From: Candidatus Saccharimonadota bacterium
GTDB taxonomy: Bacteria; Patescibacteriota; Saccharimonadia; Saccharimonadales; Saccharimonadaceae
DNA length: 32,000 nt
Reading direction: 5' to 3'
Assembly: GCA_002421785.1 (NCBI GenBank)
Contig: DIRZ01000002.1
Coordinates: forward strand, 150,001 to 182,000
A program made the position numbers and the translations under genes. Positions 8,742-25,779 of this stretch are shown piece after piece; position 1 is the first letter of the stretch, and each line of letters begins with the position of its first letter. The notes beneath the pieces were generated by a model. The model searched no databases, was not told where the DNA came from, and was given only the letters and a program-made list of their open reading frames with translations.

Positions 8742-8767
8742 ACTTATGCCCTGCTTGGCGGTATGTT
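8739..8767 (+). promoter_or_regulatory. conserved promoter-like motif TAGACT-N17-TATGTT (site 1)
   Basis: CTAGACTT..GCGGTATGTTGTCTTGC. The same ~45-bp pattern recurs at 10049 and 22800. Lies upstream of the 8793 ORF. Confidence 0.45.
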
Positions 8768-8792
8768 GTCTTGCTGAAGAAAGGAATCACAG

Positions 8793-9095
8793 ATGAAAAT
8801 GACAGATGATGCGATGAAGATGCGAAGTGGCACCAGCCTCCGGGGCTACATTAATGCCCACTATAGCCAGTTGGTCGAGCTATTCGGCGAACCGTACGCC
8901 GATGACAGTAATTACAAGACGGACGCCGAATGGATCATCCCTACACCGCACGGCCCAGCCACAATCTACAATTATAAGAACGGTTTCTCGTACCTGGGAC
9001 TTAGCGGATTAAGGCTTGAAGAAATGGACGAGTGGCACGTCGGCGGCAAAAATAGCAAAAGTTATGAGTGGGTCTTACAGCTATTAAGCAGCTAG
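8793..9095 (+). CDS. hypothetical 100-aa protein (phage-type small protein)
   Basis: RBS AAAGGAA precedes the ATG. No motif I can assign. Occupies the variable slot of module 1. Confidence 0.6.
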   Translation: MKMTDDAMKMRSGTSLRGYINAHYSQLVELFGEPYADDSNYKTDAEWIIPTPHGPATIYNYKNGFSYLGLSGLRLEEMDEWHVGGKNSKSYEWVLQLLSS

Positions 9096-9120
9096 TTGTA
9101 ATCTGTACTATAATCAGTTC

Positions 9121-10044
9121 ATGATTGAACTTAGCAAACTTATACAAATTCCCCTTCGTGAAGTCTGGAAGCATGAAGCATTGGATTTTACGCAGTGGCT
9201 TGCGCTGCCAGCTAATATCGAACTACTTAGCGATACTATTGGCGTAAATATCACCGAGACACAGACAGAAGTTGGGGTTGGTCAGTTCCATGTAGATATA
9301 CTCGCTGAAGATGAACATGGCCGGAAAATTGTGATAGAAAATCAACTCGAGCCAACCAACCACGATCACCTTGGGAAAATTATCACCTACGCATCAGGTT
9401 TGCAGGCTGAAGTGGTGGTGTGGATCGTTGAGCGTGCACGCGAAGAACATGAGCAGGCGATAAACTGGCTGAACGAGAATACCACCGAAGACGCAAACTT
9501 CTTCTTGCTACAGATCGAGGCATGGAAAATTGGAGATTCACGACCAGCACCAAGATTCAATATCATTGCAAAACCAAACGATTGGGCTAAAACTGTCAAA
9601 CAGAGTGCGACTGGCAATACTGTAAGCGATTTAAAGCTCAAACAACAAGACTTCTTCGAGCTACTCCGTAAGTATGGTGAGGATAATGCCCGGGTCGTAC
9701 GTAGCTGGCGAAAAACCCAGCCACAACACTGGTACGATATCAGTATCGGAACGTCTCAGGCCCATTTAAGCGCTACCATTAATTCTCGCGACCTGCTCGT
9801 TGGCATGGAAGTATATATCTCTAACAATAAAGAGCTATTCCACAAGCTACTCACCAACAAAGACGCTATTGAGTCACAGCTAGGTATGCAGCTTGATTGG
9901 CAAGAACTGCCCGACAAAAAGGCTAGCCGGATCATTGCTACAAAACAAGGCAACTTCTTGGATGAAATCGAATCACAAGAGCTAATTCGATGGCTTGTTG
10001 AGACAGCTGATGGCTTCTCTAGAGTTTTTCCAAAATATCTCTAA
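9121..10044 (+). CDS. DUF4268-like protein with N-terminal PD-(D/E)xK (NucS-like) nuclease fold
   Basis: N-terminus FHVDILAEDEHGRKIVIENQLEPTNHDHLGKIITY looks like a D..E.Q/K restriction-endonuclease-fold core. Overall layout matches my memory of DUF4268 proteins. Confidence 0.65.
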   Translation: MIELSKLIQIPLREVWKHEALDFTQWLALPANIELLSDTIGVNITETQTEVGVGQFHVDILAEDEHGRKIVIENQLEPTNHDHLGKIITYASGLQAEVVVWIVERAREEHEQAINWLNENTTEDANFFLLQIEAWKIGDSRPAPRFNIIAKPNDWAKTVKQSATGNTVSDLKLKQQDFFELLRKYGEDNARVVRSWRKTQPQHWYDISIGTSQAHLSATINSRDLLVGMEVYISNNKELFHKLLTNKDAIESQLGMQLDWQELPDKKASRIIATKQGNFLDEIESQELIRWLVETADGFSRVFPKYL

Positions 10045-10049
10045 TTCAC

Positions 10050-10078
10050 TAGACTTTACCTCTGTTACGCGGTATGTT
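10050..10078 (+). promoter_or_regulatory. conserved promoter-like motif TAGACT-N17-TATGTT (site 2, recombinase 1)
   Basis: CTAGACTTtacctctgttacGCGGTATGTTGTTGCTTGC. The -10-like box ends 10 nt before ATG 10089, implying a near-leaderless mRNA. Confidence 0.45.
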
Positions 10079-10088
10079 GTTGCTTGCA

Positions 10089-11378
10089 ATGGAAGCACAA
10101 GTACCTCAACTAAAATACTGTCTCTACGCACGAAAATCATCAGAGTCCGATGAACGTCAGGCGATGAGCATTGACTCACAGCTAGCCGAGATGCGAGCCC
10201 TCGCAGTAAACGAAGGATTAAACGTCGTCTGCGAACTACAAGAAAGCCACTCGGCGAAAGATTCAGGAAAGCGCCCCGTGTATAACCAAATGCTCGCAGG
10301 AATAGCTAATGATGAATATAACGCCGTACTCACCTGGGCCCCAGACCGCCTCAGCCGAAACGCTGGCGACTTAGGCTCAGTCGTAGACTTAATGGATCAA
10401 CATAAGCTGCTCCACATACGCACCTACTCGCAAACGTTCACCAACAGCCCGAATGAAAAGTTCTTACTCATGATCCTGTGCTCGCAGGCAAAACTCGAGA
10501 ACGACAACAAAAGCATCAATGTGAAACGCGGCATCCGAACAAAATGTGAAATGGGCTGGCGACCTGGTACCGCTCCACTCGGCTATATAAACAGATCGTT
10601 CGGCGGAGTAACCGACATCATCCCCGACCCAGATCGTTCTGATATCATCACCGAAATGTTTCATAAGGCAGCTCAGGGCTGGAGCGGCAGGAGGCTAAAG
10701 GCCTGGCTTGATGAGCAAGGCATTACGACCAGAAGTGGACGAACCGTGCCAGTGAGCAGTGTCCTCGCGATGCTTATAAACCCCTTCTACTACGGTGAGT
10801 TCCAGTACCCCGAAGGTCCAGGAAATCCATGGTACAAAGGAGCGCATAAACCACTCATTTCCAAGGAGTTGTGGGATGAAGTACAGCAGACACGTGGAGT
10901 AAATAAAGGCGTGTGGGGATCGAAGCAGTTTGCCTTCCGCGGTCTACTTAAATGCGGTCGATGCGGCGCCGAGGTAACGGCACAGGAAAAGATAAAGCTA
11001 CTCAAGAAAAAAGGTGTGCACAAAAGGTTCGTCTACTATAACTGCACCCGCAAAATTGATCCAAATTGTAAAGAGAAATATATAAACGAAGATGTATTAT
11101 GTGAGCTACTCGAACCGCTAATTGAAAAACAGGTCAAGAAGATCCGCGTAACCCCTAAACTCCAAGCGAAGATAGACCGTCACTACGCCGTCGCTCAAAA
11201 TATTCTGCGCCAATACGGAGTCGAACGGCCGCCCGCAACGCCACTCGTTGAATACTCGAGATATGTACTGCGGAGCAGTAGCGAAACAGAGAAAACCGCC
11301 TTCGCCAATGGGATCATGAATAAGATAGCCGTAAGGAATGGTGAATTAAAAATCGCCCATGAACAGACCGATCCGTAG
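10089..11378 (+). CDS. large serine recombinase (copy 1)
   Basis: Catalytic region KYCLYARKSSESDERQAMSIDSQ, then LTWAPDRLSRN, a recombinase domain and a zinc ribbon (CGRCGAE..YYNCTRK..C). I chose ATG 10089 over ATG 10074 by homology with copy 2, which starts MLDNNTQSLKYCLYARKSS. Confidence 0.9.
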   Translation: MEAQVPQLKYCLYARKSSESDERQAMSIDSQLAEMRALAVNEGLNVVCELQESHSAKDSGKRPVYNQMLAGIANDEYNAVLTWAPDRLSRNAGDLGSVVDLMDQHKLLHIRTYSQTFTNSPNEKFLLMILCSQAKLENDNKSINVKRGIRTKCEMGWRPGTAPLGYINRSFGGVTDIIPDPDRSDIITEMFHKAAQGWSGRRLKAWLDEQGITTRSGRTVPVSSVLAMLINPFYYGEFQYPEGPGNPWYKGAHKPLISKELWDEVQQTRGVNKGVWGSKQFAFRGLLKCGRCGAEVTAQEKIKLLKKKGVHKRFVYYNCTRKIDPNCKEKYINEDVLCELLEPLIEKQVKKIRVTPKLQAKIDRHYAVAQNILRQYGVERPPATPLVEYSRYVLRSSSETEKTAFANGIMNKIAVRNGELKIAHEQTDP

Positions 11379-11385
11379 CAGACGA

Positions 11386-12339
11386 CTAATTTGAGTCGAT
11401 TCCGTAGAAGGACTTCAGCTTCTTTGCGACACGCGGCGCCAGCTTTCGGGGTATAAACTTAAGCACATTATTAGCCTTATCAATTCTTGAAGGTGGAAGG
11501 TTATTGAACCCCGCGTCAATAAGTTTTTGCTCATAACCGAAAGGCATCGCGATCAATGTCTCAAAAGGTGTGCCAGCATCGTAACCACCAATACACCTAA
11601 ATCCTATAACACCATACCTCTTACGAACTATGAGAGTTACGTCGATCGGCGTCCCATGACCGAATGAGGCACTGCTCTTTATGACAGTAGAGCTCTTATA
11701 ATATGATCTATAGTGTTTTATCAGCGAACGGATCACGACATGCAGTGCAACCGCACGATTAATTAAATCATTTGTTCTTTGCAATTCGTATATTGTCGGG
11801 TATCCGGCATCATCAGCAATAGTAACCCCCGACCTGCCAGTACTCTTAATTGCATAGTCACCATGTGCGATTGCATTTCTAAATCTTGCATCGAAAGCCG
11901 ATTCGAAAGGTTGATATACATTTTCAAAATCCGTTCCCCGCGCAATCGACTTGAGTCTATCGATTTTTTGCTCAACTTTTAGATTTGCAAACTTCTTATT
12001 TCTATGGTTTGCAATTATATAATCTTCGCCCTTCACCGTGTTAACTAGGTTAGCGATAATTTCATAGTGCTCAGAACTCTCAATTAGATGGAGGTAGGTC
12101 CACAAGTTAATGTTAAATCCCAATGATCCCCTGAATTTGCGCTGTTGCTTATAAATCTCTTCGAAAACATTCTGCGTATTCTCGAACGGGTCCCATCCAT
12201 CATCACTCATCCCTCGCATCGCGAGTATCGTCATAATTACGTTAAATTCCGACACATCGAAGGCTTTCTTGAAAAGAGGTTCAAAAACCTCCATGTATTC
12301 CTCGACAAATTGAGAGTAGTTATTTGTTGCCTGAGCCAT
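11386..12339 (-). CDS. HEPN-domain (Abi-like) putative RNase
   Basis: Contains FDARFRNAIAHGDY, the R-x4-H HEPN signature. Convergent with the recombinase. Start is either ATG 12339 or upstream TTG 12363, and neither has a clear RBS. Confidence 0.65.
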   Translation of the reverse strand: MAQATNNYSQFVEEYMEVFEPLFKKAFDVSEFNVIMTILAMRGMSDDGWDPFENTQNVFEEIYKQQRKFRGSLGFNINLWTYLHLIESSEHYEIIANLVNTVKGEDYIIANHRNKKFANLKVEQKIDRLKSIARGTDFENVYQPFESAFDARFRNAIAHGDYAIKSTGRSGVTIADDAGYPTIYELQRTNDLINRAVALHVVIRSLIKHYRSYYKSSTVIKSSASFGHGTPIDVTLIVRKRYGVIGFRCIGGYDAGTPFETLIAMPFGYEQKLIDAGFNNLPPSRIDKANNVLKFIPRKLAPRVAKKLKSFYGIDSN

Positions 12340-12363
12340 ATAGAATATCTTATCACTGGTCAA

Positions 12364-12600
12364 GGAACTCGGTCAGCATTTCGGCTGTCCAGTTGCCCTA
12401 GGAGAAACCAGTCAATTTCAGGACTAAACATCAAGGGTGGACACGAAAAAACCGCCCTTTCGGACGGTTCCATCGGTTTTGTACCTTTTGGTGACATTTG
12501 GTACTTTTGTCTGACTCAAGGGGTAAATCTGACTTTTGGTCAGGGAACCCGGTCTGGGTATTTACCTGCTGAGTCTGGCTCCCCGTACAGGTCACGAACT
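12364..12600 (-). repeat. tRNA-Asn-linked non-coding module, copy 1 (most diverged; degenerate tRNA 3'-like end at 12576-12599)
   Basis: Shares blocks with 24720-24977 and 28741-29040: the hairpin GAACCGCCCTTTCGGACGGTTCC, gttttgtaccttt, and ctgctgagtctggctcc followed by ..cgaac. Confidence 0.7.
12444..12470 (-). terminator. intrinsic-terminator-like hairpin in module copy 1
   Basis: Minus strand reads AACCGTCC-GAAA-GGGCGGTT followed by TTTTCG. GNRA loop, and the stem contains one G.U pair. Confidence 0.5.
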
Positions 12601-12615
12601 ATATCGAACAGAGAA

Positions 12616-13284
12616 CTACTCATCAACAGTCTCAAGTTGACCGTCGATAAGATACTCCCAAATTACTCCATAATTTATGACTTCAGATCCTTGACCCGTC
12701 TTAAGATTAGGCACCTCAAGAGGTAGCTCCCCACCACCACTCCAGTAGTGCGTCCATATCTGCTCATTAGTTTCTGGGCTAAAACTTGCCGCATTACCAA
12801 TTTTCCACATTTGAGAAATTACCTGCATATTAACTTTAACTACACGCGCCGGAGAAGCAGTGTTAAGTTTAAATTTTACAAGATCATTCATGTCAAAATT
12901 CCATTTATCTGCCGCTTCTTTCGCATCAGATAGACCTCCAAAGGCATATAGACAACCAAAGCGAGAGGGATATTTTTTCGTCTCTTCATGACCCCTTCTG
13001 TATAGCTCTGCATTGTAGTCAACCGTATATTCGCTGACCTCCCTAAGACTGAAACTACTAGGTGATTGCATATCGACATCTGGATTTGGTATAAATGGCA
13101 GATAGTCTACCGATCCTGATATGAATTTCATACGTTTATCAATATCAAAGAATGTATTCGCGATTGAAGCAGACGTTAAGGTTTTAGTTAATCTATAGTT
13201 CCATTTAAGAGTCCACATCCTATCATGGTGAAGGAATATATAAAAAATATCAGGTACATCTTCGTTGGTATTCAGAGTCTTCAT
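12616..13284 (-). CDS. hypothetical 222-aa protein (last gene of the macrodomain operon)
   Basis: Clean ORF in an AT-rich block, 38 nt downstream of the previous gene. No recognisable motif. Confidence 0.6.
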   Translation of the reverse strand: MKTLNTNEDVPDIFYIFLHHDRMWTLKWNYRLTKTLTSASIANTFFDIDKRMKFISGSVDYLPFIPNPDVDMQSPSSFSLREVSEYTVDYNAELYRRGHEETKKYPSRFGCLYAFGGLSDAKEAADKWNFDMNDLVKFKLNTASPARVVKVNMQVISQMWKIGNAASFSPETNEQIWTHYWSGGGELPLEVPNLKTGQGSEVINYGVIWEYLIDGQLETVDE

Positions 13285-13322
13285 ACATTTACATTATAGA
13301 TATAGATGCTACAAATGAGACA

Positions 13323-15095
13323 CTACTTATCGTCGTCCAGATTAAGACCGAAGCTAGTGCCTAGGACAGCCCCGGCGCGCCTCAGGTATGCTATAGTTTC
13401 GTCATGGACTCCATCCCGTGGAGGTGATTTTATAAGAACCTCCTTCCCCTCCTCGTCGAGCACTCCTGAATCACCATACTTCTCTAATAGCTTAATGACC
13501 ATATCTTGGTAAGTTGCGCCTTTATCCATTAACATAGGGTCTGTTTTTGGCATTTTATCGTGGCAGTATGCTGTTTGTGCCCCCATCCTCAAGACCGATC
13601 TTAATGTCTCTTTGTGCCAGTTAACCTCAATATCTTCTCCGAACATTGAAGAAGTTATATCTTCGGGGTCATAACTCTCAAATGACTCCTGTGTTAGTTT
13701 CAAAAAGTCTTCAATTTTCAATAAAGAAAGGCAGGTATTACGAGAGTTGCCCACCTTGATAGCAGCATTTAGCAATGTTTCATGTTGGTGCATTAAACTA
13801 AAGAACTGATTTTCATAAACATGCTTATCAGCTTCAGTTAACGTACGGTAGTCGATATTTTCCTTTAGAGCTCGAGCGATGACGTACATTGCATCAAGAA
13901 AGATTCTTATGTCTTTCATCTGTGTTTCTTCATGAGAATCAAACTTTTGGCCTATTCCCCATAGGCAATTTGTTAATGCACTTAGTGGAGTTTCATAGGT
14001 ACCACTGAACATCAGTGGGGTTTGCTCGAGCCCAACCATATCACCTATTAAGCGTTCGCCAAGCCATGACACATCACGAATCACATCGTCTATACGCTCC
14101 TGGCTCATTTCATCTTCCACATCAAACAGTCGTTCACCAATGTTTCGGTATATTCCCATCAGCTTCTTGAATGTTTCCTGATCCTTCTCTCGAAAAACGT
14201 CTCCTATATCTTTCATTAAATCTAGGATGCTACTGAGCATATTTAGTTTATTATTAGTTACGACATCATTGGCAACTCTCTCAACAGAATCGAGAATGTG
14301 AAACAGTGCGGTATGTAGCCCTTGTGAGCTTGCCAGCTCTATACTGTTTCTTATTACATCGCAGTAATAACTAAGGAACTGCGTACTGGAAGGATCTTTT
14401 AAATAAATGGCTTCTAAAGCCATAAGTGAACGTATTAGAAGCGTAGTATCGGACCGTTGGACGGCCTGCATAATAAAAGACTCTATAGGTGCCAGCGGGT
14501 TTTCCGCACCCCTATTGGTCTTTCGCATCTCGGCATGCTGTACAAGCCTCTTCTTATAATTTGTTAGGCCATCTTGAATGATTTGTTTTTCATCTTCTGA
14601 TGGTTCTCCTCCTAGAATCATAGAGGTTGACACTACGGTATGCTCTTCAGGTGGACGACCGTAACGGTATTTGAGGTATTCGCTAAAGGCTGCTTGATCA
14701 TAGTTATCAGTATGGAAGTGCAGTGCCTCAGATGGCACAAGATAACGCGTCTCCTTATATATAAACCAGCCTAATAGAATTATTGAGAGAGGGATTGTTA
14801 GAAGTATAATCAACGCAACAATGGGATTTTCGAGAATATAATTTATGCAATAGTTTTCATTCGGGAAAAAATCGTGACTTGGAAAAGCTAGCATGAGACT
14901 CGCTCCTCCAGTCACCAACAGACCGCCGACAAAGACAGACGCCATTGCGATAAAGGCAGGAGCTTCGAATAGTTTCCGGCTATTCTTATAAATTAAAAAC
15001 GACTGCAATATTTGAGCGATTGCAATGATAGCAGCCACACCGATACCAACAATCGTCACTTGAATGGAGAATAATGTGTTGTAAAAATCAAGCAT
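13323..15095 (-). CDS. 590-aa membrane protein (about 4 N-terminal TM helices plus a large helical soluble domain)
   Basis: N-terminal ~120 aa has hydrophobic stretches (VTIVGIGVAAIIAIAQIL, FIAMASVFVGGLLVTGGASLML, IVALIILLTIPLSIILLGWFIY). The rest is charged and helical. No known motif. Confidence 0.65.
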   Translation of the reverse strand: MLDFYNTLFSIQVTIVGIGVAAIIAIAQILQSFLIYKNSRKLFEAPAFIAMASVFVGGLLVTGGASLMLAFPSHDFFPNENYCINYILENPIVALIILLTIPLSIILLGWFIYKETRYLVPSEALHFHTDNYDQAAFSEYLKYRYGRPPEEHTVVSTSMILGGEPSEDEKQIIQDGLTNYKKRLVQHAEMRKTNRGAENPLAPIESFIMQAVQRSDTTLLIRSLMALEAIYLKDPSSTQFLSYYCDVIRNSIELASSQGLHTALFHILDSVERVANDVVTNNKLNMLSSILDLMKDIGDVFREKDQETFKKLMGIYRNIGERLFDVEDEMSQERIDDVIRDVSWLGERLIGDMVGLEQTPLMFSGTYETPLSALTNCLWGIGQKFDSHEETQMKDIRIFLDAMYVIARALKENIDYRTLTEADKHVYENQFFSLMHQHETLLNAAIKVGNSRNTCLSLLKIEDFLKLTQESFESYDPEDITSSMFGEDIEVNWHKETLRSVLRMGAQTAYCHDKMPKTDPMLMDKGATYQDMVIKLLEKYGDSGVLDEEGKEVLIKSPPRDGVHDETIAYLRRAGAVLGTSFGLNLDDDK

Positions 15096-15142
15096 TTATT
15101 CTATTAGTATACCGTGTGACAGGCATGTAATTACAGCATAAG

Positions 15143-15667
15143 CTATATAGATGAGACTAAGTGCACGTTTTCGCAAATCACCTGGTCTCCTATGGTGTAT
15201 ACAAAGAAACTGATATTGAGTTTTGACTCTGGATTATCTTCAAAGTATTCGTTAATAGCTTCAAATGCTAAAGCCGCCGCTTCCTTTTTCGGGTAGCGAT
15301 GTATTCCTGCTGAGAGCAGTGGAAATGCAATAGATACAATGTTGAGCTCCTCGGCTCTACGGAGCGACTCCCAGTAACAGCTTTTGAGAATGTCGGCTTC
15401 ATTTCCATGATGATCGCCATAGATAGGGGTTGCAGTATGAACTATGTATTTAGCTGATAATCTAAAGCCTGGAGTCACTACCGCATCGCCGAACGCACAG
15501 TAATTAATCTCATCACATACTTTAGTAAGCTCTTCATCTCCGGCCGCTTCAAAGATTTGCCCGCACAATCCACCACCACCCTTAAGTGCAATATTCGCAG
15601 GATTTACGATAGCATCACCGTCAAAATCTAATATGTCTCCTTGAATGATTTTTATATGCTGATTCAT
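15143..15667 (-). CDS. stand-alone macrodomain protein (MacroD/YmdB-like ADP-ribose hydrolase)
   Basis: IIQGDILDFDGDAIVNPANIALKGGGGLCGQIFEAAG and IVHTATPIY are classic macrodomain motifs. Confidence 0.85.
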   Translation of the reverse strand: MNQHIKIIQGDILDFDGDAIVNPANIALKGGGGLCGQIFEAAGDEELTKVCDEINYCAFGDAVVTPGFRLSAKYIVHTATPIYGDHHGNEADILKSCYWESLRRAEELNIVSIAFPLLSAGIHRYPKKEAAALAFEAINEYFEDNPESKLNISFFVYTIGDQVICENVHLVSSI

Positions 15668-15701
15668 AGTGCTTGCTACCTTAGCTTACATTCACAAAAT
15701 G

Positions 15702-16895
15702 TCATAGTATTATGTCGGTTCCGTCGGGTGCTTTAAGCTTCCACGGACCACTATCACTCTTTGGCGTATCTGGTTTCTTCATTTTCCCAGCCTTTATATC
15801 CCGCTCTACAAGCTTTTTCAGATCTTCTTCGCGCTCGTAGGCTCGCAGGCGTCCATTTAAATACCCGAGTCGATACGAAATACCATTACTCATGAGTCGC
15901 CAGTTGGTATCCTGAAGCGCTTTTTCTACTGTTTTCTTAAGGGTCTTTTCACTATCTCGGTCGTCACGATTACTCTTTCCATCAAGGCAGTTAAATCCCA
16001 CGAATACGTCTTTACCCATTTCTGGCTTATCTAAACTGAATTCGATATAACCGGCCTTTTCAAGCGCAGGAGCAAGTATAGTATTCAACTCTGCGATCTT
16101 TGGCTTTTTCATTTCTTTCATGGCATCGTAAAGATATTTATTGTCCTCCTTCTCTTTGAACTCTTTACCAAGTCTAGCCATTTCTTGGAAATCGTGGCGC
16201 ATTTTGAATAGGCGGTCGCGGAACTCCGTATCATGCAGGCAATAATGCGCACGATCCTTGTCAAAATCAGGATCGGGTTTTTTCTCCTTGCTCATTAAGT
16301 CCATTTTATCCTTGAAGCTATGTTTACATGATGCGCACGTATATGTGATCGTGATAGCTTTTTTGGTTTTCGTTGTTTTATGTGTTTCTTCCGACTGGCA
16401 TTTTGGACATACAGTTGGTTTAACTTTCCACACCGTGCAATCTTCCCAAAAGGCGCTGTTCTTATCGCAATGAGGACAGCGCAACATGAATAACACTTCT
16501 TCTGAATCATCAATTTCGTATGTTTCACCGCGATGCATCAACGATTTGTCGATAATTCGGAGTCCCTGTTTGCCACAATGATGACACGAAGGCTCTTCTG
16601 CAAGTCGTGCTGATGATATCTGCTCGTCCTTTGCCCGATCCCTAGCAATCCATTCCTGGATTTTGCTGTCTCGTTTTTCATAGCGATCCAGCAGCTCATT
16701 GCCCACGGTTTCCATATAGAAAACATTCAGGAGAAAGGCGTTGCCAGGTTTATCAACCTTTTCTCCTTTAGGGAGTTTGCTTTCGAATTCAGAGTAAAAG
16801 TTATCGTAATGGCTCATACCGCGACGAGCAGACTCAACGGTTAGTCGATCATAAAGATTCTCGTAGTGCTGGCGTTCTTTGAGATGAGTGTACAT
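15702..16895 (-). CDS. 397-aa protein with four CxxC pairs (two predicted zinc ribbons)
   Basis: CHHCGKQG..CPHCDKNS..CPKCQSE..CASCKHS in the central region. RBS AGAGGG precedes ATG 16895. First gene after the tRNA pair. Confidence 0.65.
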   Translation of the reverse strand: MYTHLKERQHYENLYDRLTVESARRGMSHYDNFYSEFESKLPKGEKVDKPGNAFLLNVFYMETVGNELLDRYEKRDSKIQEWIARDRAKDEQISSARLAEEPSCHHCGKQGLRIIDKSLMHRGETYEIDDSEEVLFMLRCPHCDKNSAFWEDCTVWKVKPTVCPKCQSEETHKTTKTKKAITITYTCASCKHSFKDKMDLMSKEKKPDPDFDKDRAHYCLHDTEFRDRLFKMRHDFQEMARLGKEFKEKEDNKYLYDAMKEMKKPKIAELNTILAPALEKAGYIEFSLDKPEMGKDVFVGFNCLDGKSNRDDRDSEKTLKKTVEKALQDTNWRLMSNGISYRLGYLNGRLRAYEREEDLKKLVERDIKAGKMKKPDTPKSDSGPWKLKAPDGTDIIL

Positions 16896-16933
16896 GAATC
16901 CCTCTTGTTAGAAATTCGGACATAATCCGGAGC

Positions 16934-17018
16934 TCTAAGGAGGGGGATTCGAACCCCCGGAGGCTTTCACCTCGCCTGCCCCTCAGACAGGTGCCATCGA
17001 CCACTCGGCCACCCTTCC
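16934..17018 (-). tRNA. type-II tRNA-Leu(GAG) with mismatched top of the acceptor stem
   Basis: Minus strand: GGAAGGG TG GCC..GGC, anticodon arm CCTGT-CTGAGGG-GCAGG, long variable arm GAGG-TGAAAG-CCTC, T arm GGGGG-TTCGAAT-CCCCC, then TCCTTAG-A. Pairs 1:72 (G/G) and 2:71 (G/A) do not form. No encoded CCA. Confidence 0.65.
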
Positions 17019-17021
17019 TTC

Positions 17022-17136
17022 TGGTACCCAGTGCGAGATTCGAACTCGCACGCATTACTGCACGGGATTACTCAGCTCACGAACATGTTCCCGAGCTTAG
17101 GTAGTCCCGCGTGTCTACCAATTTCACCAACTGGGC
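17022..17136 (-). tRNA. type-II (Leu-like) tRNA gene with a ~30-nt hairpin-forming insertion in the anticodon loop; anticodon not assignable
   Basis: GCCCAGT TG GTG-AAATTGGTAGA-CAC G CGGGA [37 nt] TCCCG TGCAGTAATGCGT GCGAG-TTCGAAT-CTCGC ACTGGGT A CCA. Acceptor, D, variable and T arms are canonical. A TACAAT -10 box lies at 17145-17150, 8 nt upstream of the 5' end. Confidence 0.6.
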
Positions 17137-17174
17137 ATATATTTATTGTACCGCTTGTTGTAGCCATTAAAAAG

Positions 17175-18245
17175 TCAGCTGACCCCCTCTACGAATCGCA
17201 ACCGCCTAGCACCCAATGCGCTCTGCTCAGACTCGGTATACTTCGCAATCATGGTATTGATCGCCGTTCGTATAACAAAATCATTTGTACGCATGATATC
17301 GGTCTTATCAACACTATAGATTGGGGCGCTCGTTAGGTCGTCGTTGAGCAACAGCTTCCGCACTGCCTTTTGCGCCGCCGCGCTATTAGTGATGGTCACA
17401 TTCGGCAAAATCCTAATGACTTGGTCGATGCGAGATAGCACGGAGGGCCCCGCCACCAAGCACTGCATATCATTTCCGACACTCGCCGCAAAGTACGCGA
17501 GATCGACTACGACCTGCCGCCACTCCGAGTCCGGTCCGATGGTTTGCAAATCCATGGCGACCGCCTTTATATCCGGATGTCTTTGCAAAAATCGCAAGTG
17601 TTCGTCTATATCCTTTCGCCCGTGCCAAGTAATATGAGGGATTGCCGGTAATCCTGCTTCGATCATTTCTTTGTACATGATCATGCTCTTCTTTTGATTG
17701 ATTAACCTTTCGGCGTGCGGTTGATTCGCCCAGACCGAGTAGTCAGGGGGCACAATTGCATGTAGATCCAGTTTCTTGAACTCATCGATAATCCGGTGCC
17801 GCTCCGCAGCGGGCCATGCACGTTCGAGCAATGCATCATTTGCAAAACCCAACAGGATAACTTTAGTTCTCTTAGAAACCCCAAGCCGCGCATGAATGTC
17901 GGTGGCGACTTGCAATCGCTTAGCTGAAACAACGTCACTCAAACTTACAGCGACATATTTAGGAGTATATTCCCTGAATAGCTTGCCGCTGCCGTTAGGG
18001 ATAGTCGGAACATATCGCGGGAGACTGGGGTTGATCGGATTAGTAATTGCTATATCATCAAAATCAACACCGTTCACCTCGGCTAGTCGAAGAGCAAAGT
18101 CGTCAGAATCCTCCCCAATAAGGTCATACCCACGAGCGTTAATTCCTGCGGCGTTACAATGAAAATCATCATCTTCAAGCCGGTCACCAAACGGGCAATC
18201 CGATCGTCGTACATCTGTAATTTTAAGCTGCTGATGGTGTTTCAT
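17175..18245 (-). CDS. hypothetical ~356-aa protein
   Basis: Long ORF, start ATG 18245 (MKHHQQL) or GTG 18260. I cannot place it in a family. A faint TIM-barrel / transglycosylase-like impression is too weak to call. Confidence 0.6.
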   Translation of the reverse strand: MKHHQQLKITDVRRSDCPFGDRLEDDDFHCNAAGINARGYDLIGEDSDDFALRLAEVNGVDFDDIAITNPINPSLPRYVPTIPNGSGKLFREYTPKYVAVSLSDVVSAKRLQVATDIHARLGVSKRTKVILLGFANDALLERAWPAAERHRIIDEFKKLDLHAIVPPDYSVWANQPHAERLINQKKSMIMYKEMIEAGLPAIPHITWHGRKDIDEHLRFLQRHPDIKAVAMDLQTIGPDSEWRQVVVDLAYFAASVGNDMQCLVAGPSVLSRIDQVIRILPNVTITNSAAAQKAVRKLLLNDDLTSAPIYSVDKTDIMRTNDFVIRTAINTMIAKYTESEQSALGARRLRFVEGVS

Positions 18246-18636
18246 GACCGAGCACCCCACCCTTCACGATGGCGCGCAGAGTGTTTGCGCCGACACTCTG
18301 CACTTGACCAGAGTACACGTAGCCCATGGCCATACATTCTAATAGACGGTCTTTTTGCTTACCTGCATATAACGAAAACCGCCTATTGCCGACAAAGACG
18401 CCGATCTCGCCAGCATCCACCCTTGCTAGAGTGACGGTGTCGCCACGTGTCGCCCTTGGGTCATTACCTGCAGCATAATTAACCTTCAGCTCCAAGGAGA
18501 AGAGACATGCGTTTACTGACGTCTCGCTGCCCGGTGTTTCATCGCCAAACGATGAAACACCACCACCATCGCCAGCGTCATGCCTAACCCTTGGTTTTTG
18601 GACATTCTTCTGTGTTGTTCCTGAACCCCGACCCAT
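18223..18636 (-). CDS. hypothetical 137-aa protein
   Basis: ORF begins 2 nt after the DUF2188 gene and overlaps the next gene's start. Gly/charged-rich N-terminus. Confidence 0.5.
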   Translation of the reverse strand: MGRGSGTTQKNVQKPRVRHDAGDGGGVSSFGDETPGSETSVNACLFSLELKVNYAAGNDPRATRGDTVTLARVDAGEIGVFVGNRRFSLYAGKQKDRLLECMAMGYVYSGQVQSVGANTLRAIVKGGVLGHETPSAA

Positions 18637-18638
18637 GG

Positions 18639-18887
18639 CTAGTGCCTCGTATCTTTTGGAGGATTAGGATCATTTGCTGGCGCAATTGTGTCACGATCAC
18701 GGATCTGTCCGTTGGGTCGATGGATTGTGATCTCACCACCTGCACCACCGTTGCGTGCCGACTGTTTTGCTGCAGATTCTGCTTCTGCTTGTGTGTTCGT
18801 TACACCCGATGCGCGATGCGCACCAGGAAGTTTGTATTGCCATTGACCGTCCGGTCGCCGAGTTATGTGATAGTTGCGTTGAGTCAT
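18639..18887 (-). CDS. DUF2188-like small protein
   Basis: YHITRRPDGQWQYKLPGAHRASGVTNTQAEAESAAKQSA..GEITIHRPNGQIRDRDT matches the DUF2188 pattern as I remember it. Confidence 0.65.
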   Translation of the reverse strand: MTQRNYHITRRPDGQWQYKLPGAHRASGVTNTQAEAESAAKQSARNGGAGGEITIHRPNGQIRDRDTIAPANDPNPPKDTRH

Positions 18888-19006
18888 ACTAACCCCTTTC
18901 TAACGCTTATTTTTTAAACGTGACCTTCGTTCCCCTCGTCACATACAGCTAATCAATCCTTTTTGTGTTGAACAACTGCTACATTATTAGGATATTCCTT
19001 TTTCTC

Positions 19007-19042
19007 TTGCAAGTCAACATAAATAGGATTATAATATCCTAT
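19007..19042 (+). promoter_or_regulatory. sigma70-type promoter TTGCAA-N17-TATAAT with inverted repeat ATAGGAT/ATCCTAT bracketing the -10 box
   Basis: -35 at 19007-19012 and -10 at 19030-19035. Repeat arms at 19023-19029 and 19036-19042. A third TAGGATAT copy lies at 18988-18995. RBS AAGGAAAGGA precedes ATG 19061. Confidence 0.6.
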
Positions 19043-19060
19043 ATAAGGAAAGGAACAGAT

Positions 19061-19402
19061 ATGGAAGTAACCAAGTATGTAGGTGAAAAAATTAAAGAGT
19101 TCCGTACATCATACGGTGGAGGAAAGGGATTATCGCAAGAAGAATTAGGAGAGAAACTGAAAATTGCACCAAATACGGTGTCACGCTGGGAAAACGCTAC
19201 TTATAAACCCAAGTTAGTGGACCTGGACAAGCTCGCCAATTTCTTCAAGGTGCCAATTTCGGCATTCTTCCCTGCGGGCGAAGCATCAGCACCGCTAGAG
19301 GGTCTTATGCGCGCAGCCGAAGGCCTCGCCCAAGATGATATTGATGCACTCACGCAATTTGCCCAGATTAAAAGCGCACAAAATCAACTAAAGAAAAAGT
19401 AG
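19061..19402 (+). CDS. XRE-family HTH transcriptional regulator
   Basis: GLSQEELGEKLKIAPNTVSRWENATYKPKLVDLDKLANFF is a typical Cro/C1-type HTH. I chose ATG 19061 (good RBS) over the track start at 18965. Confidence 0.85.
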   Translation: MEVTKYVGEKIKEFRTSYGGGKGLSQEELGEKLKIAPNTVSRWENATYKPKLVDLDKLANFFKVPISAFFPAGEASAPLEGLMRAAEGLAQDDIDALTQFAQIKSAQNQLKKK

Positions 19403-19408
19403 ATTGAC

Positions 19409-20053
19409 ATGGAGGATCGTACCGAATATTACCGAAAAATGACCGATCTGGCACAAGAACAGCGAAGTCTCTTCGGGATACAAGGTGCAAAAATCAGTCG
19501 AACCGATTTTCGTAAGATCTACAAACACTACGGGATAGAACTTAGCCAGTGGCCGTTGCCAAACATGAGTGGCAAGCCACTCAAGAAGCTTCGTGGTGTA
19601 TACTTTCCTGACCTTCATGGCAAGCCGTCCGTTCTGGCGGCACGACTTCCTGAAGAACCGTATATCTTTACCCTCGCTCATGAGCTAAAGCACCACCTTA
19701 TGGATCGAGACTCCGCCGGAGCATTCTGCCTCTCCGAAGTAAGGGATGAGGTAAAGGAGATTGGCGCAGAGGTCTTCGCTGCAGAGTTCATATACCCTAC
19801 GAAGTTGTTTTTCGATGATCTCAATAAGCTCGGAGTAACAAAGGGCCAATGCACAGCTCGAGACTTGGTTGTGCTGAAACACCAAACGAACACCAGTCTG
19901 AGCTATGCATCGTTAGCAAAACGCGCAACTCGCACCAAATGTGCTACCGAACCTTTACCGACTTCAGGGTGGAAAAAAATTGAAATCCAAATTTACGGTG
20001 AGCCAGATTATGTACGCATTCAGCGGTACCGAAAGTTACAGAAAAGCCATTGA
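19409..20053 (+). CDS. ImmA/IrrE-family zinc metallopeptidase
   Basis: HEXXH motif in FTLAHELKHHLMD. Lies immediately downstream of the XRE gene, the classic ImmR/ImmA arrangement. Confidence 0.8.
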   Translation: MEDRTEYYRKMTDLAQEQRSLFGIQGAKISRTDFRKIYKHYGIELSQWPLPNMSGKPLKKLRGVYFPDLHGKPSVLAARLPEEPYIFTLAHELKHHLMDRDSAGAFCLSEVRDEVKEIGAEVFAAEFIYPTKLFFDDLNKLGVTKGQCTARDLVVLKHQTNTSLSYASLAKRATRTKCATEPLPTSGWKKIEIQIYGEPDYVRIQRYRKLQKSH

Positions 20054-20121
20054 TTATGTTATCCTATTATGTTTAAATTATTTTAAGGTCGTTACCGCAT
20101 GTAACTAGCTAAGACGTGAAG

Positions 20122-20190
20122 AAACGTTTTGCGTGCCGATCAAATAGCAACAATGCTGTTTGACTGACATACAAAACGTTTTTTGTTTTG
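20122..20190 (+). terminator. long hairpin (10-bp arms AAACGTTTTG / CAAAACGTTT, 40-nt loop) followed by a T-rich run
   Basis: Arms at 20122-20131 and 20172-20181, followed by ttttgttttg. Lies between the ImmA gene and ParB-methylase 2. May be a terminator or a regulatory structure. Confidence 0.35.
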
Positions 20191-20224
20191 TCGCATACAG
20201 CTCCAAAGAAAGGAGTGTCTTGTC

Positions 20225-21562
20225 ATGCCGAAAGCCAAACAAGACCTACAAATACAAACCGTAAAAATTAGCGATCTAAACCCAGCGCCGTACAATCCAC
20301 GCAAGTGGAGTGAGGAAGCAATCGCACAACTGACCGATAGTGTCCGACAGTTCGGTATGGTCGATCCACTACTTGTCAACGGCGCCGAGGGTCGCCGAAA
20401 CATTGTTATCGGCGGCCATTTCCGCCTCAAAGTAGCAAAAGATCTCGGCATTACCGAGTTACCTGTCGTATATGTAGCTATCCCAGAGCTTGAGCGAGAG
20501 AAAGAGCTTAACCTTCGTCTCAATAAAAATCTTGGCGAATGGGATATTGATCTACTAAAGGAGTTTGACGAAGCCATTCTTTCCGATATCGGCTTCAGTA
20601 GTGAAGACCTGGATGGTGTATTTGAGGTCGATGATACACCCGAAAACTTTGACCTCAAGAAAGAGCTTGAGAGGCTTGATATTCAAGTAGAAGCAAAGAA
20701 GGGTGATATTTACCAGCTTGGTAATTCTCGCCTCATGGTCGGTGATAGCACTATACCCGAGGACTTTACTAAGCTAATGAATGGTGAACTAGGAGACCTT
20801 TGCCTATGCGATCCTCCGTATCGTCTCAGCTATATGAAAGGTGGTATTCGACATGGCGAGCCTGTGACGGGCTTCGGAGCGAAACGTAACCGTCGCTACC
20901 TCGAAACTGAGGAGCTATCAGACGACTTTACTACTAAATGGATGCAAAATGTCGCTAACCACGCAAAGGAAGATTTCAGTATCATTGTGTACGAGGCGTG
21001 GCATAACCTCCGGGAGATTTGGTCATGCCTCGAGGCGCACTGGAAGGTAAAAAATATGCTTGTTTGGCACTTGCCTAACCGTCACCAAGGATTTGCTGCA
21101 AAGTATAAGTTCTTCAGTAAATACGATATTGCCATGGTCGGTGCTAGCGGTACGGTTGAATACAACCACGGAGAGGAACCAGATGGCTTACAAGAAGAGT
21201 ATGAGGCTGCCCTTTATGCTATATCTGGCAAACCCCAATGGGAGGGATATAAAAAGGGTAAGGACAAGAGGTTTATGCCAACTGACCATATCGAGTTTAA
21301 TGCCGATGACGAAAAACACTCAGGCCAAAACATTATATTCGGAACCAAACCGATCGAGATCCTACTCCCCTACATAAAGGTACTAACTAGGCGCGGAGAT
21401 CTAGTTGTAGAACCTTTTTGTGGTAGCGGCTCGACTCTAATTGCTGCGACTAAATTGCATCGTCGATGCTACGTCATGGAGAAGTCTCCAGTATATGCAG
21501 AAGTTGCCATGAAGCGATGGGAAAAATTAACTGGCCAGAAGAGGGTGAAAATAGATGAATAA
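20225..21562 (+). CDS. ParB-like N-terminal domain fused to a beta-class DNA methyltransferase (copy 2)
   Basis: RBS AAAGGAG lies 8 nt before ATG 20225, so I reject the track start at 20183. Motifs NPRKWSE..FGMVDPLLV..IVIGGHFRLK, canonical motif IV LCDPPY, motif I VVEPFCGSGSTLIA. Confidence 0.88.
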   Translation: MPKAKQDLQIQTVKISDLNPAPYNPRKWSEEAIAQLTDSVRQFGMVDPLLVNGAEGRRNIVIGGHFRLKVAKDLGITELPVVYVAIPELEREKELNLRLNKNLGEWDIDLLKEFDEAILSDIGFSSEDLDGVFEVDDTPENFDLKKELERLDIQVEAKKGDIYQLGNSRLMVGDSTIPEDFTKLMNGELGDLCLCDPPYRLSYMKGGIRHGEPVTGFGAKRNRRYLETEELSDDFTTKWMQNVANHAKEDFSIIVYEAWHNLREIWSCLEAHWKVKNMLVWHLPNRHQGFAAKYKFFSKYDIAMVGASGTVEYNHGEEPDGLQEEYEAALYAISGKPQWEGYKKGKDKRFMPTDHIEFNADDEKHSGQNIIFGTKPIEILLPYIKVLTRRGDLVVEPFCGSGSTLIAATKLHRRCYVMEKSPVYAEVAMKRWEKLTGQKRVKIDE

Positions 21563-22007: not shown

Positions 22008-22015
22008 TATAATAA

Positions 22016-22206: not shown

Positions 22207-22797
22207 ATGCAAGAAAATAATCAACCGAATCAAGTGCACAATCATCAGCTACAACCTGTGAAGAAAAGAGGTTGGTATAAAACCTGGTGGGGAATCCTAC
22301 TAATTATACTAGGTGCCATTACTGCGATACCTGTAATAATGCTATTCATCGTTGTAGGGATCGTAATGTTTACACAAGACAACGATACAAATCCGTCTAC
22401 CAAACAGAAAGATGAAACTAGTTTGAGCCAGTCCGTTGACGAATCAAAGATTCCATATGAAGGAGTTGAGATATGGAAAATTGGTGATAACGGCCTCGGC
22501 ACAACCATCGTTATTGATCCTAAATACGACAATAGCGAGTCACTCAAGCGGCTCGGATCGGAGCTCAATAATGAAAACCAGTCGAGACAATTTGCGATGA
22601 ATTACATCTACACAGACAAGACTTCAGCCTTATATAGAAAAGAAAGCTTCTGCTCACCTGGACAGCCTGCATCAATTCGTCAGCACAAAAAAAGCTGGGC
22701 AGCTCTCTACCAAAAAGATAATTCAGGCGCAAGAATGACGATATTTACAGATCGCTCTTGCGACCCGAATGCCGCTTCAGAAACTATCGAATATTAA
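22207..22797 (+). CDS. single-pass membrane protein (variable slot of module 2)
   Basis: Strong RBS GAAGGAG precedes ATG 22207. TM segment WWGILLIILGAITAIPVIMLFIVVGIVMF followed by a soluble domain. No motif. Confidence 0.65.
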   Translation: MQENNQPNQVHNHQLQPVKKRGWYKTWWGILLIILGAITAIPVIMLFIVVGIVMFTQDNDTNPSTKQKDETSLSQSVDESKIPYEGVEIWKIGDNGLGTTIVIDPKYDNSESLKRLGSELNNENQSRQFAMNYIYTDKTSALYRKESFCSPGQPASIRQHKKSWAALYQKDNSGARMTIFTDRSCDPNAASETIEY

Positions 22798-22800
22798 GGC

Positions 22801-22828
22801 TAGACTTTGTAAACCGTTGCGGTATTGT
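22801..22828 (+). promoter_or_regulatory. conserved promoter-like motif TAGACT-N16-TATTGT (site 3, recombinase 2)
   Basis: CTAGACTTtgtaaaccgttGCGGTATTGTTGTCCTTGC. ATG 22842 lies 13 nt after the -10-like box. Confidence 0.45.
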
Positions 22829-22841
22829 TGTCCTTGCAGTC

Positions 22842-24125
22842 ATGCTGGACAACAATACTCAATCACTAAAATATTGCCTGTACGCTCGGAAAAGCTCCGA
22901 GAGCGACGAGCGTCAGGCAATGAGTATTGATTCACAATTAGCGGAAATGAGATCCCTCGCTGAAAACGAGGGATTAGATGTTGTGTGCGAACTACAAGAG
23001 AGCCATTCAGCAAAAGACTCTGGAAAGCGTCCTGTATACAACAAGATGTTAGCCGGTATCGCTAATGGCGAATATAACGCGATTCTCACCTGGGCACCAG
23101 ATCGTTTGAGTCGAAACGCCGGAGACCTTGGGTCTGTTGTCGACCTTATGGACCAGCATAAGCTACTCCACATACGTACATATTCCCAAACATTCACCAA
23201 TAGTCCAAATGAGAAATTCCTCCTCATGATTCTCTGCTCACAAGCCAAGCTTGAAAACGATAACAAAAGCATCAATGTAAAACGCGGCATACGCACAAAA
23301 TGCGAGATGGGCTGGCGACCTGGTGTTGCTCCACTTGGCTACATGAACCGAGCATTCGGAGGTATCAACGATATCATTATCGATCCCGAACGTGCCGACC
23401 TCATCAGAGAAGCATTCCATAAGGCAGGATACGAACGATGGAGCGGGCGCAGAATTAAAGCTTGGCTCGACGAAAAAGGATTTACTAATCGATCAGGAAA
23501 ACCGATAAGTATCAGTCAAGTGCTAGTGATACTAAACACCCCCTTTTACTACGGAAGGTTCCAGTATCCAGAGGCACCTGATGCACCGTGGTATGATGGC
23601 GCACATAAACCACTCATCTCCAAAGAATTATTTGACCAGGTACAAGAGACTCGTGGCGTTAACAAGGGTGTATGGAGGTCAAAAACCTTTGCCTTTCGTG
23701 GTTTGCTCAAATGCGGACAATGCGGTGCTGACATTACCGCACAGGATAAATTCAAAACACTAAAAAAGTCCGGTGAGGTAAAGCGATTCGTCTACTATAA
23801 CTGTACGAGACGGAAAGATCCGAATTGCACTGAGAAATATATAAACGAAGACAAGCTGTGCGAACTTTTGAAAGACTTTATTGAAACACATCATTCCGAA
23901 ATCAAGATCGGTGACAAATTGCGTGCAAAGGTAGATAAGCATATGTATGTCACCAACACTTTGCTCACCCATTACAATATCGATCGGGAGTTGAGTGACC
24001 CATTCGTAGAATACGCGAGATATGTGCTCATAAGTGGGACTGAGAACGAAAGAACAAGTTTAGCAGCTGGAATAGAGACAACCATCCAGATCAAGCATGG
24101 CATTCTCGAATTTTGGCCTAAGTAA
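22842..24125 (+). CDS. large serine recombinase (copy 2)
   Basis: MLDNNTQSLKYCLYARKSSESDERQAMSIDSQ.., LTWAPDRLSRN, zinc ribbon CGQCGAD..YYNCTRR..C. The N-terminal ~150 aa are nearly identical to copy 1 at protein level, while the DNA differs at many synonymous sites. Confidence 0.9.
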   Translation: MLDNNTQSLKYCLYARKSSESDERQAMSIDSQLAEMRSLAENEGLDVVCELQESHSAKDSGKRPVYNKMLAGIANGEYNAILTWAPDRLSRNAGDLGSVVDLMDQHKLLHIRTYSQTFTNSPNEKFLLMILCSQAKLENDNKSINVKRGIRTKCEMGWRPGVAPLGYMNRAFGGINDIIIDPERADLIREAFHKAGYERWSGRRIKAWLDEKGFTNRSGKPISISQVLVILNTPFYYGRFQYPEAPDAPWYDGAHKPLISKELFDQVQETRGVNKGVWRSKTFAFRGLLKCGQCGADITAQDKFKTLKKSGEVKRFVYYNCTRRKDPNCTEKYINEDKLCELLKDFIETHHSEIKIGDKLRAKVDKHMYVTNTLLTHYNIDRELSDPFVEYARYVLISGTENERTSLAAGIETTIQIKHGILEFWPK

Positions 24126-24732: not shown

Positions 24733-24807
24733 GGAATCGGGTCGGCTTTTTGCCTGCTTGCTTTCCTGGAGCTTGACAGGTCGGTGTTAGAACTAAATTA
24801 CAGAGGT

Positions 24808-24840
24808 GAAAATGAAAGAACCGCCCTTTTGGACGGTTCC
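24808..24840 (-). terminator. terminator-like hairpin in module copy 2
   Basis: Minus strand reads GAACCGTCC-AAAA-GGGCGGTTC followed by TTTCATTTTC. Confidence 0.45.
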
Positions 24841-24942
24841 AACATTTTGTACCTTTTGAGCTCGACTCAAAATTCTTGCTTAAGTAAGGAGTTAAGGAGA
24901 GGCCGGTTACGGAACTCGGTCATCTATTTTAACTGCTTGCTC

Positions 24943-24977
24943 TGGCTCCGGCGACTGGATTCGAACCAGGCGCCTAT
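24943..24977 (-). pseudogene. displaced 3' fragment of a tRNA-Asn-like gene (variable loop, T arm, acceptor 3' strand, G73, CCA)
   Basis: Minus strand reads AGGCGCCTGG-TTCGAAT-CCAGT-CGCCGGA-G-CCA. The matching 5' strand TCCGGCG is absent upstream. Similar but not identical to the 3' half of the intact gene at 29007-29047. Confidence 0.75.
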
Positions 24978-25778: not shown

Positions 25779-25779
25779 C

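Follow-up and report, generated by a model that had tools for sequence, protein, structure and literature searches.

The window analysed in this study is a stretch of 32,000 nucleotides from a Candidatus Saccharibacteria chromosome (contig DIRZ01000002.1), and its subject is a block of four genes at positions 12616-16895 of that window, preceded by two tRNA genes. The four open reading frames (ORFs) are called G1, Macro, g3 and g4. The genes of the block and the tRNAs were found on the minus strand, as follows.

15702..16895, minus strand: G1 (gene 1), ORF of 397 amino acids (aa) with an N-terminal three-helix bundle, two zinc ribbons (four CxxC) and a C-terminal alpha/beta region
15143..15667, minus strand: Macro (gene 2), ORF of 174 aa, a stand-alone MacroD-like macrodomain, presumed to be an ADP-ribose binder or hydrolase ('eraser')
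13323..15095, minus strand: g3 (gene 3), ORF of 590 aa with three to four N-terminal transmembrane (TM) helices and a cytoplasmic alpha-solenoid
12616..13284, minus strand: g4 (gene 4), ORF of 222 aa, probably a distant member of the DUF2441/BC2332 family, a candidate ADP-ribosyltransferase (ART) and the last gene before the element end
16934..17018, minus strand: element-borne tRNA-Leu(GAG) (ARAGORN; Rfam tRNA 33.8 bits)
17025..17136, minus strand: second tRNA, of Leu type (Rfam tRNA 42.6 bits, E=5e-8), absent from the ARAGORN output

A first-pass annotation of this DNA had described four tightly spaced minus-strand genes (gaps of 34-47 nucleotides) directly downstream of two tRNA genes, and the coordinates of the ORFs agreed with that spacing. 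The gap between tRNA-Leu(GAG) and G1 was 38 nucleotides, followed by gaps of 34 nucleotides between G1 and Macro, 47 between Macro and g3, and 38 between g3 and g4. ARAGORN gave one tRNA; the second was added by the Rfam match at 17025-17136 and the tRNA pair is therefore real. The anticodon loop of this second tRNA contained an insert of about 35 nucleotides that can fold into a small hairpin of its own. The insert may be a mini-intron, or the gene may be a decaying one; like tRNA-Leu(GAG) beside it, it is borne by the mobile element. The GC content of the four-gene block was 41.5%, declining from 43.4% in G1 to 39.2% in g4, in comparison with 46.4% for the window, 50.7% for the adjacent DUF4417 block and 51-52% for the core-like genes at 25-32 kb; the richness in AT that had been noted by eye thus holds against the core flanks (about 51%). 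No match of the block DNA was found by megablast against E. coli genomes, phages and plasmids. The scan for promoters and terminators gave counts not above those of shuffled sequence and was uninformative on operon structure.

The four genes had been read as one operon-encoded system built around the macrodomain. In our study, the neighbourhood of G1 was surveyed in 57 species-level loci from the genome collection, together with metagenome loci. Among the species-level loci, Macro was found after G1 in two (L010 and L011), g3 in one and g4 in none, and no further G1, Macro or g3 locus examined contained g4. The gene orders seen around Macro were the following.

window, L001 and L071: G1, Macro, g3
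L011: G1, Macro, AAA_15/21, Shedu-like
L067: Y1 transposase (<), then Macro, AAA_15/21, SduA_C, without G1
L069: G1, Macro, DUF2726, reverse transcriptase (RVT_1)
L008: G1, Macro, small ORFs
L068: G1, Macro, end
L070: helicase, Macro, end, without G1

Macro was accompanied by at least five different downstream partners, or by none, and in two loci it stood without G1. The first-pass annotation had itself stated that a lack of co-occurrence of the four genes in other genomes would count against its proposal; since they did not occur together elsewhere, neither across the 57 species-level G1 loci nor in the Macro loci, a coherent four-gene operon system is refuted. Macro, g3 and g4 are independently mobile cargo located between G1 and the attachment (att) end of an element, and not a conserved four-gene system.

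The element in question is a serine-recombinase integrative element of about 12.5 kb in the Candidatus Saccharibacteria chromosome, and the block is its att-proximal cargo arm. Its ends, its remaining genes and the tRNA associated with it were located as follows.

12300..12600, no strand assigned: att-like junction at the right end, a diverged copy of the 3' exon of the intron-containing tRNA and of about 200 nucleotides of downstream flank (repeat families D2, D4 and D5; three-way alignment)
24786..24976, no strand assigned: att-like repeat at the left end (repeat search and three-way alignment)
22758..24125, plus strand: large serine recombinase (Resolvase, Recombinase and Zn_ribbon_recom), 92% identical in L001
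20183..22007, plus strand: ParB-N6/N4 DNA methyltransferase and small-terminase-like helix-turn-helix (HTH) protein, element backbone conserved beside G1 loci
18965..20053, plus strand: regulatory pair of an HTH (Cro/CI-type) and an M78 (ImmA/IrrE-like) protein, divergent from the block
17175..18887, minus strand: DUF2188 (82 aa), a 137-aa protein and DUF4417 (361 aa, nuclease-like PHROG), element genes preceding the tRNAs
about 28999-29312, minus strand: tRNA split by a group I intron (intron 29056-29291; Rfam 75 bits)

The att-like repeats at 12300-12600 and 24786-24976 place the element at about 12300-24976 of the window. A third copy of the repeat was found at 28850-29040, at the intron-containing tRNA. 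Since the 3' exon of this tRNA, with about 200 nucleotides, is repeated at 24786-24976 and at 12300-12600, the tRNA is the integration site for tandem islands; relative to the tRNA at about 29.0-29.3 kb, the 12300-12600 repeat was more diverged than the 24786-24976 copy. An island junction beside the block had been suspected, and it proved to be this diverged repeat of the tRNA 3' exon and flank. The right-hand junction contained a terminator-like hairpin at about 12445-12470 on the minus strand, and the stop codon of g4 abuts the repeat. In L001, the same att-like repeat was present directly after g3. The element thus has the properties of large-serine-recombinase elements, namely the three integrase domains and target repeats, which mark its two ends and recur in L001.

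The window contained two tandem elements with a common backbone of a ParB-N6/N4 methyltransferase, a small-terminase-like HTH protein and a large serine recombinase, the recombinases being located at 10074-11378 (sister element) and 22758-24125 (block-bearing element). The sister element (2746-12360) contained the anti-phage-associated set DUF499 and DUF3780 in the equivalent arm, along with a DUF4268 protein; its own G1-type end falls outside the window. The defence-type neighbourhood that had been noted around the block was found again in these DUF499/DUF3780 genes and in the ParB-methylases nearby. A small VKOR / P-type ATPase / ArsR island at 25050-28680 also belongs to the tandem array. 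In L031 and L062, G1 and the serine recombinase were adjacent and convergent, about 225 nucleotides apart, as expected across attP, that is, at the junction of a circularised or tandem element.

This element family has G1 as its conserved backbone gene ('anchor'), located at the end opposite the recombinase. Its homologues formed at least 682 clusters at 40-92% identity and came almost exclusively from Candidatus Saccharibacteria/Patescibacteria assemblies, and identical proteins were found on contigs of up to 813 kb. The four CxxC pairs already noticed in the 397-aa protein (C104/107, C140/143, C163/166 and C187/190) were invariant or nearly so in 21 homologues. The AlphaFold2 (AF2) model of G1 had a predicted local distance difference test (pLDDT) score of 72; it shows two zinc ribbons and, predicted with confidence, a helical bundle at the N-terminus. 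The fold search of this model against PDB and BFVD gave no significant match and no ART, sirtuin or NADase fold.

The layout around G1 was recurrent in about 58 loci. On the recombinase side the order was recombinase < ... (large-terminase-like <) TerS-like < ParB-methylase <, and on the cargo side it was > repressor (S24 or HTH+M78) > variable cassette > G1 > variable genes or element end. The cassettes found at the G1 slot included a cyclase of the cyclic-oligonucleotide-based anti-phage signalling system (CBASS) with a 2TM/Cap15 effector, a CBASS cyclase with E2, type I restriction-modification (R-M), PDC-S18, HKD with Snf2, DUF4238, a Multi_ubiq/ThiF set and an AAA_11 helicase. Many other cassettes at this slot were without any database match (for example the c14/c15 partners, the c44 DUF4238 and numerous singletons, in loci L008-L064). 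On either side of G1, the slot carries interchangeable known defence systems in related elements. The defence-island setting, for which a survey of neighbourhoods had been proposed, is borne out by CBASS, type I R-M, PDC-S18 and HKD with Snf2 in the slot of related elements, and the locus has what marks a defence hotspot, a conserved flanking gene and interchangeable recognisable defence systems in related elements. No description of the G1 anchor gene or of its hotspot was found in the searchable literature. G1 was without Macro in 55 of the 57 species-level loci and is therefore ruled out as the ART or toxin partner of Macro.

In the P2/P4-type defence hotspots of integrative elements and phage satellites, conserved core genes flank interchangeable defence cargo. 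The present slot is alike in that G1 and the repressor-side promoter region bracket a site with many known defence systems, and in that the cargo here is att-proximal and AT-rich. It differs in its host of the candidate phyla radiation (CPR; Saccharibacteria), its large serine recombinase, its ParB-methylase/TerS-like backbone and its zinc-ribbon anchor without a fold match.

The 174-aa MacroD-like macrodomain was confirmed by Pfam PF01661 (E=8e-33; 113 bits against a cutoff of 22) and by its best solved relatives in PDB, MacroD2 and MacroD1 (E about 1e-29). Macro shares the fold family of human MacroD1/2 and E. coli YmdB at 35-40% identity and has kept the NxxN...GGGG phosphate-binding loop. 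However, the canonical motifs Nx6GG[VLI]DGxIH and G[VI][YF]G were not matched: GGGGLCGQIF and GIHRYP stood in place of GGGVDGAIH and GIYGFP, so that Cys replaces Asp and Phe replaces His in GGGV-D-GxI-H, and G-I-Y-G has His-Arg where Tyr-Gly would stand. Among 15 aligned members of the Macro clade (at least 57% identity), the Asp was substituted by Cys and the His by Phe (Leu in two members), and G-I-Y-G read G-I-H-x with a variable fourth position (R/Q/G/M), whereas relatives at 40-44% identity retained Asp/His and Tyr/Phe.

The Macro subfamily contained about 40 clusters at an identity of at least 59%, always in the same arm of the element and with changing neighbours. The same Cys/Phe variant was found in 20 of 46 IMG/VR macro loci as the N-terminal domain of proteins of 300-450 aa. 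In the viral contigs examined, the Cys/Phe Macro was followed by a vWA-like gene and an ADP-ribosylglycohydrolase (ARH), for example in L087; the clusters c2 (vWA-like) and/or c5 (ARH) were located 3' of the macro gene in about 17 of the 46 IMG/VR loci. One relative, P0167, was an ARH-Macro fusion. In L084 the macro gene was preceded by a gene for a WapI-like immunity protein. In L005 (JGI 3300001592 Draft_10000022), where the same locus was assembled a second time, Macro was split into ORFs of 48 and 143 aa and the ParB-methylase was fragmented; these splits could be strain variation, pseudogenisation or assembly error within the same sample. The distribution of Macro suggests a portable, autonomous ADP-ribose eraser or binder carried on mobile elements.

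Among the three other proteins, the first-pass annotation had looked for a writer of ADP-ribose and had regarded only the macrodomain as recognisable. G1 and g3 were indeed without any specific fold match, and without an ART, sirtuin or NADase fold; g4, on the other hand, is probably a distant relative of DUF2441, a family of the ART clan, and it is the part of both statements that changed. The sole Pfam signal of g4 was DUF2441 (E=0.074, 13.5 bits), and its sole PDB signal was 2AUA/BC2332, obtained via the motif YPSRxxCLYA. A full-length homologue was present in E. coli (WP_001547078.1, annotated 'hypothetical protein'; 36% identity, E=6e-38), which itself matched DUF2441 (E=0.0059, 17 bits). 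The two-sequence profile of g4 and this homologue matched 2aua in PDB with E=0.032 and added a second, C-terminal segment in collinear order, and hhalign of the g4 profile against two Bacillus DUF2441 proteins gave a probability of 92.3%. In the four-sequence alignment, Y15, E93, R96, YPSR (105-108), Y113-A114, Y180-W181, G183, E210, L212-I213, G215 and E218 were invariant; Y113 (CLYA), R108 and E210 among these are candidates for the NAD-binding constellation of an ART fold (H-Y-E or R-S-E). The likeness to DUF2441/BC2332 (PDB 2AUA) consisted of the collinear FY(I/V)x at the N-terminus, YPSR(L/F)xC(L)YA, (H/E)YW(S/K)G and E(Y/L)LIxGx(L/I)E in a protein of similar length. The identity was about 25-28%, and g4 contained an extra insert of about 20 residues before the C-terminal motif.

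To our knowledge, no DUF2441 protein has a demonstrated activity. The family is a member of the Pfam ADP-ribosyl clan (PMC7955679), and in structure BC2332 agrees with diphtheria toxin, exotoxin A and cholix toxin at their active sites (PMC3024214). As g4 is a probable distant homologue of DUF2441 and DUF2441 belongs to the ART clan, a candidate ADP-ribose writer exists at the locus; from its sequence, g4 is probably an ART-fold protein and a predicted ADP-ribosyltransferase. The hydropathy scan of g4 gave no segment of TM-helix strength. The E. coli homologue (L074:10502-11146; NZ_CP058223.1) lay directly behind the gene of a site-specific integrase; the small phage-like island also contained genes for HNH and further endonucleases, and the 4-kb region was nearly complete in 38 of 5426 complete E. 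coli genomes. No macro gene was annotated near it, and g4 can stand alone. This E. coli gene was the sole relative of g4 recovered; none were found in phage records, in IMG/VR, in the metagenome scan or among the ORFs of all fetched loci. A 220-aa protein after Macro in L008 had been considered by eye as a second ART (FYHH..., VEYIL), and it was dropped, having no Pfam match and no hidden Markov model (HMM) similarity to g4.

The description of the 590-aa protein as one with about four TM helices and a large helical domain was upheld for g3. Its hydropathy scan gave hydrophobic segments at residues 6-37, 42-72 and 82-115, corresponding to three to four TM helices, and the remainder of the AF2 model was all-helical, with an alpha-solenoid well predicted from about residue 200. 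Foldseek gave only generic HEAT, TPR and designed repeats for this model, with low TM-scores; the matches being generic helical repeats, any specific enzymatic assignment for g3 was rejected. The close homologues of g3 formed only 5 clusters at an identity of at least 56% among 5.8e9 proteins and were confined to a few close lineages. The full HMMER scan gave about 120 representatives of distant relatives, of the same length and at 20-33% identity, and in their visible contexts (L072 and L075) no adjacent macro gene was found. In L075 (4188-11903), a g3-family protein of 30% identity followed a NUDIX hydrolase and a proteasome-like protein (weak Pfam match) in a series of genes that all point the same way. 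A NADAR gene was present 4 kb downstream in the same locus, a faint second link of the g3 family to ADP-ribose metabolism; it is a single case and was not used as evidence.

The substitution along g3 was uneven. Between the window and the homologue P0002, the identity was 92% in the TM region and 72% in the middle, followed by 38% in the last 190 residues. Over residues 401-590, the g3 of the window was 37.8-38.9% identical to each of four close homologues; these four were 78-98% identical to one another. Among the close g3 homologues, g4 was present only in the window. This pattern is most simply read as the arrival, through recombination, of g4 along with the 3' third of g3; the divergent C-terminus of g3, with the confinement of g4 to the window, hints at a partnership between that C-terminus and g4.

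On balance, we lean toward the explanation that the block is cargo of mosaic make-up, for defence or counter-defence, in which a writer and an eraser are combined in a lineage-specific way, and that it lies behind the anchor G1 at a hotspot of the element. Macro would then be a portable eraser or binder, carried by mobile elements and phages to counter ADP-ribosylation that targets either themselves or the cell. In g3, a membrane-anchored alpha-solenoid, the conserved TM part may act as an effector or an anchor, and the fast-diverging C-terminal third may be a recognition or partner-binding surface. The candidate writer g4 would be an ART-fold enzyme of the DUF2441 type that probably came in with the divergent 3' third of g3, and would act as an ADP-ribosylating effector. 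In the lineage of the window, the resident Macro might also buffer g4, which would make of them a recent, lineage-specific writer/eraser pair and not an ancestral one.

Several points weigh against this explanation. The word 'defence' in it comes from guilt by location, and a writer (g4) with an eraser (Macro) in one tight operon has exactly the look of a dedicated toxin/antitoxin-like set. G1 could be functionally tied to whatever adjoins it. A functional pair of Macro and g3 is possible, because all the close g3 homologues with a known upstream region (window, L001/L003 and L071) have G1 and Macro upstream. Macro is without the canonical MacroD Asp and His, and judged from these residues its hydrolase activity is not assured. 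The assignment of g4 as an ART lies below the Pfam gathering score (13.5 vs 25 bits), and the putative beta-1 His (H19/H20), which g4 shares with the Bacillus proteins, is missing from the E. coli homologue.

A bolder reading, which we offer only tentatively, unites g3, g4 and the resident Macro in an undescribed membrane-anchored ADP-ribosylation defence module. The variable C-terminal solenoid of g3 would hold or regulate the DUF2441 ART, which the Cys/Phe Macro would check or sense, and G1 would mark a rich, unexplored CPR hotspot.

A dedicated DarTG-like writer/eraser system of abortive infection, in which g4 would modify an essential or phage target, Macro would reverse the modification in cells free of infection and g3 would sense infection or would anchor and sequester g4 at the membrane, appears unlikely. 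It draws on the presence of Macro and an ART-clan protein of the DUF2441 family in one co-directional block with gaps of 34-47 nucleotides, on the location at a defence hotspot and on the C-terminal module of g3, which changes along with the presence of g4. As in DarTG (DarT ART with DarG macrodomain/NADAR), an eraser domain and a putative ART-fold protein are found on one mobile defence locus. However, g4 was missing from every other Macro, G1 and g3 locus examined, Macro was found with unrelated partners or alone, and the E. coli relative of g4 had no macro gene nearby. The DarTG-type arrangement to which the block had been compared was not recovered at the level of the proteins either. Macro has only 174 aa and is without the C-terminal DarT-binding domain of DarG, an antitoxin of about 330 aa; PADLOC DarG matched it with E=0.045 over 33 residues (5-37). 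No Pfam or PADLOC match to DarT was obtained in any of the four proteins, the ART candidate is DUF2441-like and not DarT, and Macro and g4 are not adjacent, being split by the membrane-protein gene, nor are they co-conserved.

Saccharibacteria are ultra-small epibionts, and the cargo might serve counter-defence or inter-bacterial conflict, with Macro directed against ADP-ribosylating defences or against toxins of the actinobacterial host, and with g4 and g3 acting on competing elements or on the bacterium that the epibiont lives on; we regard this as quite improbable. T4-like phages carry orphan NADAR-type anti-DarT1 factors, and in phages such orphan erasers of ADP-ribose serve for counter-defence (PMC11825919). 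The likeness to these consists in a stand-alone eraser on a mobile element, with no cognate toxin in most loci, and in the Macro relatives of the same variant, which are frequent on viral contigs in clusters with ARH hydrolases. In contrast to the phage factors, the present eraser is a macrodomain and not a NADAR protein, and it lies in the lysogeny-side cargo slot of an integrated element. The slot otherwise carries classical anti-phage systems, and no secretion signal or delivery apparatus was identified; g4 was also without a hydrophobic segment of TM strength.

More improbable still is signalling of the type II Thoeris kind, in which the altered Macro would bind a signal derived from NAD, whether g4 or an enzyme of host or foreign origin produced it, and would then activate g3 to arrest or kill the cell. 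Macro-TM effectors of type II Thoeris bind ADP-ribose-derived signals (PMC11204291; bioRxiv 10.1101/2024.01.03.573942). The adjacency of Macro and g3 in three loci, which juxtaposes macrodomain and membrane-protein functions in a defence locus as in type II Thoeris ThsA (Macro and TM effector), is consistent with such signalling, and so is the loss of the canonical Asp and His in the Macro clade, as for a sensor rather than an enzyme. However, unlike in ThsA, Macro (174 aa, no TM helix) and g3 (TM helices, no macrodomain) are separate genes, and Macro was mostly found without g3 or another TM partner. Neither a TIR (ThsB-type) nor a SIR2 protein was found among the proteins of the element, and the same Cys/Phe Macro travels with ARH hydrolases in phage contigs, which points to erasing and not to sensing. 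Both the DarTG-like and the Thoeris-like system would call for a conserved linkage of the genes, and no such linkage was seen in the loci compared.

A housekeeping role in NAD- or sirtuin-linked metabolism, with Macro as an O-acetyl-ADP-ribose deacetylase (the best NCBIfam models for it) beside unrelated neighbours, is hardly credible and was rejected on the patchy, mobile-element-bound distribution of Macro and on the scores of those models, all far below their cutoffs (139 vs 200 bits); the low GC and the absence of a sirtuin nearby also speak against it.

The locus does not establish a new four-gene defence system. Macro is a variant form within a known family, the arrangement of the hotspot is likewise of a known kind, though found here in an unexplored phylum and with an uncharacterised anchor gene, and the combination of Macro with a TM-solenoid protein and a DUF2441 protein is not a described system. 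The locus raises the question of whether the DUF2441 family is truly one of ADP-ribosyltransferases and of what these would modify, and that of the role of a macrodomain clade in which the MacroD Asp and His are changed to Cys and Phe and which is common on phage contigs beside ARH hydrolases. The immunity and the mobile elements of Saccharibacteria are poorly charted, and G1, present in hundreds of protein clusters, is a handle by which the defence and counter-defence cargo of this element family can be harvested, including cassettes to which no function has been assigned.

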